From the NCBI RefSeq assembly GCF_041886205.1, contig NZ_CP169029.1: 64,000 nucleotides of DNA; one strand, given 5' to 3'. Positions 42,701 to 48,700 of this stretch are shown here, in pieces (the first letter of the stretch is position 1; each line of letters starts with the position of its first letter). A program made the position numbers. The stretch is from Escherichia coli. GTDB taxonomy: Bacteria > Pseudomonadota > Gammaproteobacteria > Enterobacterales > Enterobacteriaceae.

Positions 42701-45700
42701 GCGATCTTTATGGTGAAAATGTTGTGTTTCATGGTCGGGTGACAGGGATCAATATGGGAACCGGCAATGCGTTCTCCTTATTACCTGCACAAAATGCGAC
42801 AGGGAACTGGATCAAAATCGTTCAGCGTGTACCGGTTGAAGTTTCTCTTGATCCAAAAGAACTCATGGAACACCCCTTGCGCATTGGTTTATCGATGACT
42901 GCAACTATTGATACGAAGAACGAAGACATTGCTGAGATGCCTGAGCTGGCTTCAACCGTGACGTCCATGCCGGCTTATACCAGTAAGGCTTTAGTTATCG
43001 ATACGAGTCCGATAGAAAAAGAAATTAGCAACATTATTTCGCATAATGGACAACTTTAATGGCAATTACTAAATCAACTCCGGCACCATTAACCGGTGGG
43101 ACGTTATGGTGCGTCACTATTGCATTATCATTAGCGACGTTTATGCAAATGTTGGATTCCACTATTTCTAACGTCGCAATACCGACAATATCTGGCTTTC
43201 TGGGAGCATCAACAGACGAAGGCACCTGGGTTATCACCTCGTTTGGCGTAGCAAATGCTATTGCGATCCCTGTTACCGGCAGGCTGGCACAAAGAATAGG
43301 CGAATTAAGGTTATTTTTACTTTCAGTCACTTTTTTTTCGCTGTCTTCATTAATGTGTAGTTTATCGACCAATCTTGATGTGCTGATATTTTTTAGAGTC
43401 GTTCAGGGATTAATGGCGGGGCCGTTAATTCCACTGTCACAGAGTTTATTATTAAGGAATTATCCACCAGAAAAAAGAACATTTGCTCTGGCATTATGGT
43501 CTATGACCGTGATTATCGCTCCGATATGTGGACCGATATTGGGCGGTTATATTTGTGATAACTTTAGCTGGGGTTGGATATTTTTAATCAATGTCCCTAT
43601 GGGGATTATCGTCCTGACATTATGCTTAACCTTACTTAAAGGAAGAGAAACTGAGACTTCACCGGTCAAAATGAATCTTCCAGGACTGACCCTGTTAGTG
43701 CTCGGTGTTGGTGGCTTGCAAATTATGCTTGATAAAGGGCGGGATCTGGATTGGTTCAACTCGAGTACAATAATAATATTAACAGTAGTATCAATTATTT
43801 CTCTGATCTCTTTAGTCATTTGGGAGTCGACCTCAGAGAACCCGATTCTTGACCTCAGTTTGTTTAAGTCCCGTAATTTCACCATTGGTATTGTGAGTAT
43901 CACCTGCGCGTATTTATTTTACTCTGGAGCGATAGTCCTTATGCCGCAGTTACTCCAGGAAACGATGGGGTATAATGCGATATGGGCCGGACTTGCTTAT
44001 GCGCCCATCGGCATCATGCCACTATTGATTTCGCCTTTGATAGGACGTTATGGCAACAAAATTGACATGCGGGTGTTGGTGACATTTAGTTTTTTGATGT
44101 ATGCGGTTTGCTATTACTGGCGTTCTGTGACATTTATGCCAACGATTGATTTTACAGGTATCATTTTGCCGCAGTTTTTTCAGGGATTCGCCGTTGCCTG
44201 TTTCTTTTTACCCTTAACAACGATTTCGTTTTCAGGCTTGCCAGATAATAAATTTGCCAATGCCTCGAGTATGAGTAATTTTTTTCGTACCTTGTCAGGA
44301 TCAGTTGGTACGTCGTTGACAATGACGCTGTGGGGACGACGCGAATCGTTACACCATAGTCAGTTAACAGCAACCATCGATCAATTTAACCCCGTGTTTA
44401 ATTCATCGTCACAAATTATGGATAAATACTATGGTTCGCTTTCAGGAGTTCTTAATGAAATTAATAATGAAATAACCCAGCAGTCACTTTCTATTTCTGC
44501 AAATGAGATTTTCCGTATGGCGGCTATTGCTTTTATCTTACTTACGGTTTTGGTTTGGTTTGCGAAACCGCCGTTTACAGCGAAAGGCGTTGGGTGATGG
44601 TAAAAGGAGGGGGTTATAGCAGGTAAGACCGGGGATCTTAAGTCTGCGCCATTGGCAGCATCGCTCACCCAAGGAAAGGATGGCGATGCTGAATTGAAAA
44701 TTAATTAGTGGCCTTTTGCCAGATATTGCTCCATCTCTTCTTCCGGCACCATTCCACCTCCCGTCGCCCACACCAGATGAGTGGCATTATGCAGTTGTTC
44801 TGCGCTGAAACCGTGCATCTGTTGGTAACTTACTGATGCGCACACGCGCTGAGGCCCGGCCATACCCGCCAGTGCCGAAGGTTCAAGACGAATACCTTCT
44901 TCCTGCGCCAGCCAGCCAAGCATGTCATACATGGTTTGATCGCTAAGGGTATAGAAGCCATCCAGTAGACGCTCCATTGCCCGCCCGACAAAGCCTGATG
45001 CGCGACCAACTGCAAGGCCATCCGCTGCGGTAAGGTTGTCGATACCAATATCCTGAACAGAAATCTGATCGTGTAATCCTGTATGGACGCCTAACAGCAT
45101 ACAAGGGGAGTGCGTTGGTTCGGCAAAAAAGAAGTGAACATGATCGCCAAATGCCAGTTTAAGCCCGAATGCGACGCCACCAGGACCACCGCCAACACCA
45201 CACGGCAGATAGACAAACAGAGGGTTATCAGCATCGACAATACGACCTTGCTCGGCAAATTGCGCTTTAAGACGCTGGCCTGCGACGGAATACCCAAGGA
45301 ACAACGTGCGGGAATTCTCGTCATCAATAAAGAAACAGTTCGGGTCAGACTGCGCGGCTTTACGTCCTTCCTCGACGGCAACACCATAATCTTGCTCATA
45401 TTCCACGACCGTAACGCCATGGCTGCGCAGTTTTGCTTTTTTCCATGCCCGGGCATCAGCAGACATATGCACTGTCACCTTAAAGCCAATGCGGGCGCTC
45501 ATAATGCCGATTGATAACCCCAGATTTCCGGTTGAGCCCACAGCAATGCTGTATTGGCTAAAGAACTGTTTAAACTCCGGAGAAAGCAGTTTGCTGTAGT
45601 CATCTTCAAGCGTCAGCAACCCCGCTTCCAGAGCCAGTTTTTCTGCATGTGCCAGGACTTCATAAATCCCGCCGCGTGCTTTTATGGAGCCGGAAATAGG

Positions 45701-48700
45701 CAAATGGCTATCTTTTTTCAGTAGCAGTTGCCCGTTGATCGGTTGTTGATATTCCTTTTCCAACCGTTTTTGCATAGCCGGAATGGCAACCAGTTCTGAT
45801 TCAATAATCCCCCCAGTGGCAGCAGTTTCAGGAAATGCTTTTGCCAGATAGGGTGCAAAACGAGATAAGCGCGCATGGGCGTCCTGAACATCCTGTTCGG
45901 TCAGGCCAACATAAGGTAAACCTTCAGCCAATGAGGTCGTGCCAGGATTAAACCAGGTGGTTTCTTTAAGAGCAACCAGATCCTTTACCAACGGATACTG
46001 GGCGATGAGCGAGTTCATTTTAGCGTTTTCCATAGTACGTCTCTTTGCGCTTAGATGATAAATGACAGCAGGAATGTGCCCGCCAGAGCGACGACTGAAG
46101 CGATAAATGTCGCTGTCGTATAGTATTTAAATGTTTCATTGAGCGTAGCGCCGCAATATTGCTTCACCAGCCAGAAAAGCGAGTCCGTAACGATCGTGCA
46201 GCCAATCGCACCTGAACCGATAGCAATCGTAAAAATTTCCGGGCTGATGTCGGGATACAGCGGCAGCACAATGATCCATATTTATATTTTCTTCTCCAGA
46301 TTGGCGATGCCAGTTGGCATGTTTTACCTACTTGACTACATGGTTACTCGTTGGCGAGAACAGAGGCGGAATTGGGTACAATTGTCCGGGAATTATTGTT
46401 ATTTTTTATTGTATTGCCGTGTCGGGTGATAGGGCGTCGAGAATATCGTTGGATCTCGCCAGTGACGTCTGTTTCTGCTACAGTGCCCGTTTTACGGCAA
46501 ACGGCTTGGGTATGGCTTCATTAAAGGATGTCGCACGCCTGGCGGGAGTGTCGATGATGACAGTCTCCCGGGTGATGCATAATGCAGAATCTGTGCGTCC
46601 TGCAACGCGTAACCGCGTATTGCAGGCAATCCAGACCCTGAATTATGTTCCTGATCTTTCCGCCCGTAAGATGCGCGCTCAAGGACGTAAGCCGTCGACT
46701 CTCGCCGTGCTGGCGCAGGACACGGCCACCACTCCTTTCTCTGTTGATATTCTGCTTGCCATTGAGCAAACCGCCAGCGAGTTTGGCTGGAATAGTTTTT
46801 TAATCAATATTTTTTCTGAAGATGACGCTGCCCGCGCGGCACGTCAGCTGCTTGCCCACCGTCCGGATGGCATTATCTATACTACAATGGGGCTGCGACA
46901 TATCACGCTGCCTGAGCCTCTGTATGGTGAAAATATTGTATTGGCGAACTGTGTGGCGGATGACCCAGCGTTACCCAGTTATATCCCTGATGATTACACT
47001 GCACAATATGAATCAACACAGCATTTGCTCGCGGCGGGCTATCGTCAACCGTTATGCTTCTGGCTACCGGAAAGTGCGTTGGCAACAGGGTATCGTCGGC
47101 AGGGATTTGAGCAGGCCTGGCGTGATGCTGGACGAGATCTGGCTGAGGTGAAACAATTTCACATGGCAACAGGTGATGATCACTACACCGATCTCGCAAG
47201 TTTACTCAATGACCACTTCAAATCGGGCAAACCAGATTTTGATGTTCTGATATGTGGTAACGATCGCGCAGCCTTTGTGGCTTATCAGGTTCTTCTGGCG
47301 AAGGGGGTACGAATCCCGCAGGATGTCGCCGTAATGGGCTTTGATAATCTGGTTGGCGTCGGGCATCTGTTTTTACCGCCACTGACCACAATTCAGCTTC
47401 CACATGACATTATCGGGCGGGAAGCTGCATTGCATATTATTGAAGGTCGTGAAGGGGGAAGAGTGACGCGGATCCCTTGCCCGCTGTTGATCCGTTGTTC
47501 CACCTGATATTATGTTAACCCAGTAGCCAGAGTGCTCCATGTTGCAGCACAGCCACTCCGTGGGAGGCATAAAGCGACAGTTCCCGTTCTTCTGGCTGCG
47601 GATAGATTCGACTACTCATCACCGCTTCCCCGTCGTTAATAAATACTTCCACGGATGATGTATCGATAAATATCCTTAGGGCGAGCGTGTCACGCTGCGG
47701 GAGGGGAATACTACGGTAGCCGTCTAAATTCTCGTGTGGGTAATACCGCCACAAAACAAGTCGCTCAGATTGGTTATCAATATACAGCCGCATTCCAGTG
47801 CCGAGCTGTAATCCGTAATGTTCGGCATCACTGTTCTTCAGCGCCCACTGCAACTGAATCTCAACTGCTTGCGCGTTTTCCTGCAAAACATATTTATTGC
47901 TGATTGTGCGGGGAGAGACAGATTGATGCTGCTGGCGTAACGACTCAGCTTCGTGTACCGGGCGTTGTAGAAGTTTGCCATTGCTTTCTGATAGCTCGCG
48001 CGCCAGCGTCATGCAGCCTGCCCATCCTTCACGTTTTGAGGGCATTGGCGATTCCCACATATCCATCCAGCCGATAACAATACGCCGACCATCCTTCGCT
48101 AAAAAGCTTTGTGGTGCATAAAAGTCATGCCCGTTATCAAGTTCAGTAAAATGCCCGGATTGTGCAAAAAGTCGTCCTGGCGACCACATTCCGGGTATTA
48201 CGCCACTTTGAAAGCGATTTCGGTAACTGTATCCCTCAGCATTCATTCCCTGCGGGGAAAACATCAGATAATGCTGATCGCCAAGGCTGAAAAAGTCCGG
48301 ACATTCCCACATATAGCTTTCACCCGCATCAGCGTGGGCCAGTACGCGATCGAAGGTCCATTCACGCAATGAACTGCCGCGATAAAGCAGGATCTGCCCC
48401 GTGTTGCCTGGATCTTTCGCCCCGACTACCATCCACCATGTGTCGGCTTCACGCCACACTTTAGGATCGCGGAAGTGCATGATTCCTTCTGGTGGAGTGA
48501 GGATCACACCCTGTTTCTCGAAATGAATACCATCCCGACTGGTAGCCAGACATTGTACTTCGCGAATTGCATCGTCATTACCTGCACCATCGAGCCAGAC
48601 GTGTCCGGTGTAGATAAGTGAGAGGACACCATTGTCATCGACAGCACTACCTGAAAAACACCCGTCTTTGTCATTATCGTCTCCTGGCGCTAGCGCAATA

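Follow-up and report, generated by a model that had tools for sequence, protein, structure and literature searches.

Two alleles of the Escherichia coli argW-dsd locus, dsd and csc, can be told apart by triplex PCR (PMC13054288), and the locus type (csc vs. dsdCXA) is associated with niche in the E. coli population (PMC4366372). The csc-type locus of EDL933, E. coli W and EC3132 goes back to Alaeddinoglu and Charles (1979), Jahreis et al. (2002) and Moritz and Welch (2006), as these studies are cited in later work (PMC7486766, PMC4366372, PMC3032704). In EDL933, csc replaces dsdC and part of dsdX, and dsdA is silent (PMC7486766). Without DsdC, the dsdA gene of csc-type EHEC is uninduced and D-serine is toxic; in dsdCX-deleted EHEC, D-serine is still taken up via CycA and SstT, leading to toxicity, and mutations in cycA or sstT confer tolerance (PMC7486766). 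Furthermore, the silent gene can be reactivated by read-through from cscAp after deletions of cscR (PMC7486766). Csc-type strains do not utilize D-serine (PMC13054288, PMC3032704), and dsdA is conserved in 98% of 1,591 strains (PMC4366372).

In the window, i.e. the whole 64-kb stretch of DNA analyzed in this study, the argW-dsd locus very probably represents the csc-type allele, for which cscRAKB in place of dsdC and most of dsdX is the best explanation. This exchange is the published E. coli polymorphism of EDL933, E. coli W and EC3132. It is ordinary and already known, and the result adds nothing beyond the literature available since 1979 and 2002.

Architecture of the locus and position of the breakpoint

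The genes are arranged in the order emrY / dsdA / dsdX' / cscR / cscA / cscK / cscB ... argW, with the csc cassette (cscR-cscA-cscK-cscB, 46512-51397) located between dsdA and argW, an integration hotspot bounding the variable region (Table 1). All four csc genes are intact and show the canonical order and orientation, cscA being oriented in the same direction as dsdA and convergent with cscR. The nearest relative identified is strain wlxctx60, which shows 100% identity over 5.9 kb of the locus and for which RefSeq lists the genes cscR, cscA, cscK and cscB along with a pseudogene of partial DsdX; the names assigned here to cscA, cscK and cscB also match that annotation. The cscR promoter is presumably located within the spacer upstream of this gene.

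Table 1. Features of the csc-type argW-dsd locus (positions refer to the window)
Feature	Coordinates	Strand	Evidence or remark
emrY	43059..44597	+	flanks dsdA on its other side; conserved core genome
dsdA, D-serine ammonia-lyase, 442 aa	44705..46033	-	complete 442-codon ORF
dsdX-dsdA intergenic spacer, 17 nt, with dsdA ribosome-binding region	46034..46050	-	native; identical to K-12
dsdX remnant, DsdX 374-445 (last 72 codons) and stop	46051..46268	-	tblastn, 95.8% identity
Internal dsdA promoter, weak, predicted, inside the dsdX remnant	46148..46161	-	hexamers read from sequence
Breakpoint between dsd-derived and csc-derived DNA	46268..46269		blastn alignment to K-12 stops at 46268
csc-derived spacer, approx. 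242 nt, dsdX remnant to cscR	46269..46511		length constant among the 8 csc-type loci compared
cscR, LacI-family sucrose operon repressor, 331 aa	46512..47507	+	translation; LacI-family matches; annotated as such in RefSeq at the 100%-identical locus
cscA, sucrose hydrolase (invertase), 477 aa	47515..48948	-	TIGR01322, 479.7 bits (cut-off 356)
cscK, fructokinase, 304 aa	49164..50078	+	NF006957, 505.7 bits (cut-off 450)
cscB, sucrose:H+ MFS transporter, 415 aa	50150..51397	+	TIGR00882, 593.6 bits (cut-off 220)
argW, tRNA-Arg(CCU)	61737..61811	-	ARAGORN; matches K-12 argW

Homology to K-12 ends 235 nt upstream of the dsdA ATG, and the multi-strain alignment parts at the same position (-235). Genomes with an intact dsdX matched only bases 1-169 of the query comprising positions 46100-46440. 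The dsdX remnant matched positions 374-445 of the 445 positions of NF007395 with 143.5 bits (cut-off 618) and hence does not represent a full-length permease, in agreement with the earlier note, which had described dsdX as reduced to a stump. An ORF listed over the remnant (46051..46269, minus strand) opens with GTG at 46269-46267, which is a fortuitous start; the equivalent stretch is recorded as a partial pseudogene in RefSeq. The absence of dsdC, also claimed previously, was confirmed by a tblastn search with K-12 DsdC over the 64-kb window, which returned none save a 28%-identical LysR paralogue at 2937-3443 mapping to a gene annotated as yfeR in the nearest genome. By means of blastn, no match to K-12 dsdC, the dsdC-dsdX intergenic region or dsdX codons 1-373 was obtained in positions 36001-64000 of the window. 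The components of a functional dsdCXA operon, namely DsdC and a DsdC-dependent promoter upstream of dsdX, are thus missing within the window.

In comparison to the intact dsdCXA tolerance locus of K-12 and UPEC CFT073, cscRAKB takes the place of dsdC, of the divergent control region between dsdC and dsdX, and of dsdX codons 1-373. Collinearity with K-12 extends over dsdA, the dsdX-dsdA spacer and the final 218 nt of dsdX; the complete collinear segment (emrK 3' end, emrY, dsdA and dsdX end; 3,654 nt) is 97.8% identical, and the locus occupies the same chromosomal site beside emrY. With EDL933, E. coli W and EC3132, the locus shares gene order, breakpoint, a dsdX remnant of 218-219 nt as well as spacer and gene lengths; no structural difference was found within 44705-46269, nor did breakpoint and gene content differ from the EDL933 / E. 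coli W allele. DNA identity to O157:H7 amounts to 98.4-98.5% across the locus. The flanks differ from those of EDL933, E. coli W and EC3132 by an IS903B-like element in emrK and by other content of the island between cscB and argW. Both the IS903B-like insertion and a 5.6-kb deletion beside cscB are strain-specific oddities; the emrK::IS903 junction was searched among complete genomes and was carried by none of them.

A single ancestral recombination event would account for this arrangement. It would have substituted cscR-cscA-cscK-cscB for dsdC, the DsdC-dependent dsdX promoter and dsdX codons 1-373, leaving behind dsdA with its ribosome-binding site and 218 nt from the 3' end of dsdX. Replacement by cscRAKB at a fixed breakpoint, occurring in approximately half of the complete E. 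coli genomes, is the cause of the gene losses, a cause that the earlier note had not named.

Distribution among complete E. coli genomes

The identical junction was detected in 2,687 of 5,426 complete E. coli genomes (approximately 49.5%), among them O157:H7, O55:H7, E24377A and O121. Carriers including O121 covered the junction query fully, and O157:H7 and E24377A were collinear across the junction. Since the junction recurs identically in 2,687 complete genomes, an assembly or chance artefact was ruled out. Strain-specific decay of dsdC and dsdX was likewise dismissed, as the replacement is clean, the breakpoint is fixed and segment lengths are identical in all eight csc-type loci compared.

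The dsdC gene was found in 2,734 of the 5,426 genomes; both counts add up to 5,421 and thus almost exactly to the number of genomes. This sum argues against a second copy of dsdC, or of the whole dsdCXA operon, elsewhere in the genome that would keep dsdA inducible by D-serine. Second dsdCXA copies have reportedly been described in K1 strains (Moritz and Welch, 2006). Moreover, some genomes contain up to two places matching dsdC and up to three matching the dsdX end, and O121 genomes appear in both the junction and the dsdC lists. For the locus described here, a second copy is nevertheless extremely unlikely to maintain induction: the dsdA-containing query hit only one place in the nearest complete genome, which is 100% identical at this locus, and even DsdC provided in trans would lack a target here, since the DsdC-dependent promoter in front of dsdX is deleted.

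The orphan dsdA gene and its product

The earlier note had regarded dsdA as intact (442 aa) within 44705-46269, and both statements proved exact. The deduced protein matched the equivalog TIGR02035 over its full length (809.3 bits, cut-off 368.25) and NF002823 with 773.5 bits (cut-off 246), and residues 1-441 could be aligned over their entire length with the E. coli DsdA structure (PDB 3SS7). Motifs were located at residues 114, 166 and 279, comprising the SGSIKARG motif at residue 114 as well as glycine-rich loops. Residue K118 within SGSIKARG is the PLP-binding lysine of E. coli DsdA. The protein differs from K-12 DsdA in 8 of 442 residues. Four substitutions (S100N, C301F, R415H, R442H) are private to the lineage according to multi-strain comparison and also distinguish it from DsdA of EDL933, E. 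coli W and EC3132. The 17-nt dsdX-dsdA spacer showed no differences among the 10 strains compared.

It is very unlikely that dsdA represents a decaying relic, i.e. a pseudogene in the making whose function is gone. Such decay would fit a gene without an inducible promoter, the four private amino-acid changes including C301F, and findings for E. coli W, where dsdX and dsdA were called pseudogenes and a laboratory-evolved clone deleted both harmlessly (PMC6599523). However, the PLP-lysine motif is intact, the EHEC orphan dsdA enables D-serine catabolism once transcribed (PMC7486766), and knockout of dsdA in EHEC raises basal recA promoter activity (PMC13012123). Moreover, all eight csc-type alleles sampled are full length, with a dN/dS of approximately 0.10 as compared to 0.07 among dsdCXA-linked alleles. 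The latter argument is weak: divergence of cscR was 2-4 times lower than that of dsdA in the same csc-type strains, which indicates that the cassette is of more recent origin than the dsdA alleles or has been disseminated by recombination, and that most dsdA divergence pre-dates orphaning. Since the ratio mostly reflects this earlier history, dN/dS was dropped as proof of selection on the orphan gene.

Expression, D-serine response and significance

Statements on expression and phenotype of the strain are extrapolated from EHEC and E. coli W, which share its architecture. On this basis, dsdA would have lost induction by D-serine, and its transcription would be only weak, starting from a constitutive promoter within the dsdX remnant. 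A weak internal promoter is probable there, with the -10-like hexamers CAATAT/AATATT at 46161-46155 and a predicted start site near 46148 (115 nt ahead of the dsdA start codon). A strict consensus scan did not recover this promoter and returned no sigma-70-like site anywhere in 44400-49250; as this stretch must hold the csc promoters, the scan is uninformative here. The poor dsdA expression proposed in the earlier note is supported by the uninduced gene in EHEC of the same architecture, and the proposed relevance for D-serine toxicity and urinary-tract fitness would likewise agree with toxicity in EHEC and the correlation of locus type with niche (PMC7486766, PMC4366372, PMC13012123). The assumption of impaired D-serine import holds nominally, DsdX being lost, but not in the form given, since DsdX is just one among several importers of D-serine and uptake via CycA and SstT continues in EHEC (PMC7486766). 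By analogy, D-serine would enter the cell via CycA and SstT, accumulate and cause bacteriostasis; growth on D-serine is not expected, and growth on sucrose is probable.

DsdA may be latent but functional, and would be switched on by deletions placing its gene under control of the cscA promoter or another upstream promoter. The D-serine-tolerant, laboratory-evolved EHEC strains LCV2 and LCV10B, which started from the same csc-type architecture, reveal this capability: deletions of 1.1 kb or 5.6 kb removed cscR and fused dsdA to upstream promoters (O'Boyle et al., 2020; PMC7486766). Unlike in these strains, cscR and the whole spacer are intact here, and dsdA is therefore expected to be in the silent state.

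Regulatory rewiring, by which sucrose rather than D-serine would induce dsdA through read-through from the CscR-controlled cscA promoter, is improbable. The genes cscA and dsdA are co-oriented, the stop codons of cscA and cscR are 7 bp apart, and a crude consensus search predicted no terminator-like minus-strand site from the cscA stop to the dsdX remnant. Deletion of cscR in EHEC indeed resulted in cscAp-driven dsdA expression and D-serine tolerance, but the wild-type cscAp-to-dsdA fragment yielded only low reporter output (PMC7486766). Moreover, the read-through RNA would comprise approximately 1.2 kb of untranslated antisense cscR and run against convergent cscR transcription, making Rho-dependent termination likely, and the lack of D-serine utilization by csc-type strains (PMC13054288, PMC3032704) also speaks against rewiring.

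It is doubtful that the orphan dsdA is kept by selection and still works in the csc context, be it by low constitutive expression or by sucrose-inducible cscA read-through. In the former case, low expression from the promoter in the dsdX remnant would clear D-serine that is endogenous or present in traces, in keeping with the increase in basal recA promoter activity upon dsdA knockout in EHEC. In the latter case, read-through from the CscR-controlled cscA promoter would provide approximately half of all E. coli with a sucrose-inducible D-serine deaminase.

The dsd/csc polymorphism is a recognized determinant of E. coli niche, contrasting D-serine-rich urine and brain with the gut, and of sucrose use, and also affects D-serine repression of the EHEC type 3 secretion system. 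Regarding the question why thousands of genomes retain an intact orphan dsdA, the present result restates a small point at most. Assignment to the csc-type class predicts a D-serine-sensitive, sucrose-positive strain.

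An intact dsdA gene next to the sucrose cassette

The dsdA gene was found complete and located exactly as described in the earlier note, encoding a 442 aa protein that differs from K-12 DsdA at eight positions. With TIGR02035, the equivalog profile for D-serine ammonia-lyase, its product reached 809 bits (cut-off: 368), the solved E. coli enzyme 3SS7 aligned with residues 1-441, and the SGSIKARG motif with K118 as well as the glycine-rich loops are retained. Four changes (S100N, C301F, R415H and R442H) are common to the window and E. coli wlxctx60, the nearest complete genome, and are absent from the ten other alleles compared.

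The absence of the activator gene dsdC and the reduction of dsdX to a stump, both claimed previously, were likewise borne out. In profile and tblastn searches, the remnant ORF (72 aa) matched DsdX, a 445-residue model, at positions 374-445 alone and stayed well under the cut-off, and tblastn with K-12 DsdC returned from the 64-kb window only a 28%-identical LysR paralogue (2937-3443), which maps onto the gene annotated as yfeR in wlxctx60. Comparison of window positions 36001-64000 with K-12 by blastn yielded three collinear blocks. On the dsd side, homology ends 235 nt ahead of the dsdA start codon (ATG). What remains in front of dsdA is the ribosome-binding region and 218 nt from the 3' end of dsdX, and everything further upstream is gone. 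Since K-12 homology stops at 46268 and csc genes lie beyond, this is a replacement and not a mere loss: the sucrose cassette stands in the place of dsdC, the divergent control region between dsdC and dsdX, and codons 1-373 of dsdX. The cscR product gave LacI-family matches in the profile search, all of them sub-threshold.

Features of the dsd/csc region and the basis of their assignment
Feature	Position	Strand	Basis
K-12-collinear block, evgS-evgA-emrK 5' part	38169-41557		blastn
K-12-collinear block, emrK 3' part-emrY-dsdA-dsdX end	42615-46268		blastn
dsdA, complete 442-codon ORF	44705-46033	minus	ORF list
dsdX remnant, 72-codon ORF just upstream of dsdA	46051-46269	minus	ORF list
cscR	46512-47507	plus	RefSeq annotation of identical locus in wlxctx60
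cscA	47515-48948	minus	above NCBIfam curated cut-off
cscK	49164-50078	plus	above NCBIfam curated cut-off
cscB	50150-51397	plus	above NCBIfam curated cut-off
K-12-collinear block, argW-yfdC	61736-62120		blastn
argW, tRNA-Arg(CCU)	61737-61811		

This exchange is a textbook polymorphism. The same arrangement was stated for E. coli W (PMC3032704, citing Alaeddinoglu & Charles 1979) and for the species at large (PMC4366372; PMC13054288), the two alleles are typed by triplex PCR on dsdX, dsdA and cscR (PMC13054288), and dsdA was reported in 98% of 1,591 genomes (PMC4366372). A second dsdCXA copy outside the 64 kb is conceivable, although dsdA occurs at a single place in wlxctx60; in either case, the copy in the window no longer has the DsdC-dependent promoter.

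Frequency and history of the junction

Of 5,426 complete E. coli genomes, 2,687 cover the whole length of a 341-nt query spanning the breakpoint; where dsdX is intact, the match ends exactly at query base 169, corresponding to window base 46268. K-12 dsdC was present in 2,734 of the 5,426; the two classes total 5,421 and therefore nearly partition the species. Furthermore, in 2,658 genomes, including O157:H7, O55:H7 and E24377A, the match to a 6.5-kb query runs collinearly from the emrK 3' part across the 5' two-thirds of cscA. Identical lengths of dsdA, remnant, spacer and cscR across eight csc-type loci of different lineages point to one ancestral junction. For the same csc-type strain pairs, synonymous divergence is two to four times lower in cscR (0.008-0.034) than in the adjacent dsdA (0.05-0.077), which suggests a single origin of cassette and junction, followed by their spread to lineages whose dsdA alleles had already diverged. 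In a urine isolate (strain 22AR0118, NZ_CM132257.1), the dsd locus was broken in another way: IS1A sits within dsdX, separating its 5' part from a 3' remnant of 180 nt; dsdC and dsdA are intact.

All eight csc-type dsdA alleles have their full length, and pairwise dN/dS by the Nei-Gojobori method is about 0.10 among them versus 0.07 among dsdCXA-linked alleles. These values tell little about selection after orphaning because, given the lower cscR divergence, most dsdA divergence already existed when csc entered each lineage. A published EHEC dsdA knockout, in which basal recA promoter activity was raised (PMC13012123), points to a residual role of some kind for orphan dsdA.

Structural differences in the surrounding region

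The window is nearly identical to wlxctx60 (NZ_AP045833.1; bear faeces, Japan) except for four structural differences. First, emrK (40830-43059) is broken at 41558-42614 by a 1,057-bp IS903B-like element (IS5 family). Its inverted repeats are 18 bp long (GGCTTTGTTGAATAAATC) and the target duplication is 9 bp (ACCGGCACG). None of the 5,426 complete genomes carries an insertion there; this one is therefore strain-specific. The EvgA-controlled EmrKY efflux pump is probably inactivated, with a possible polar effect on emrY. Second, 5.6 kb just past cscB (51830-51836; junction overlap 7 bp) are absent, which in wlxctx60 carry YeeU-family antitoxin, DUF987, JAB-domain, antirestriction and zinc-ribbon genes, an IS911 fragment and most of an IS30. 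Moreover, at window positions ~9895-9906 and ~7405-7485, the IS421 (IS4-like) located between nupC and pdeA in wlxctx60 is missing, and there is apparently one tRNA-Ala gene instead of two in tandem.

The window carries an island between cscB and argW (~53265-61560; gene names mapped from the wlxctx60 annotation), the tRNA gene at which K-12 harbors prophage CPS-53. It comprises a 3.5-kb autotransporter gene, IS3-family elements, a PapB/FocB-family regulator gene and a tyrosine integrase adjoining argW.

Expression of orphan dsdA and expected phenotype

The published dsdA start site (PMC7486766) maps to about 46148, within the dsdX remnant, and a candidate -10-like element (CAATAT/AATATT, 46161-46155) was assigned by reading the sequence. 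Reporter output of the wild-type context in EHEC was low (PMC7486766). In the window strain, dsdA would show low constitutive expression and no D-serine induction, in agreement with the poor expression proposed earlier. Sucrose-inducible read-through from the cscA promoter is plausible, as cscA is co-oriented with dsdA, ends 7 bp from the stop codon of the convergent cscR, and no terminator-like hairpin was predicted on their strand from the end of cscA to the remnant (46270-47515, minus); the low reporter output and the probability that Rho would terminate transcription antisense to cscR nevertheless make it unlikely. Deletion of cscR in EHEC placed dsdA under this promoter and switched D-serine catabolism on (PMC7486766); the orphan enzyme is therefore functional. 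This reactivation, together with the intact ORF and motifs, disfavours a dead relic.

The impaired D-serine import also proposed in the earlier note holds only nominally, because toxicity results from ongoing import: CycA and SstT bring in D-serine, and mutations in either confer tolerance (PMC7486766). The strain should be D-serine sensitive and unable to grow on D-serine, and is probably sucrose-positive.
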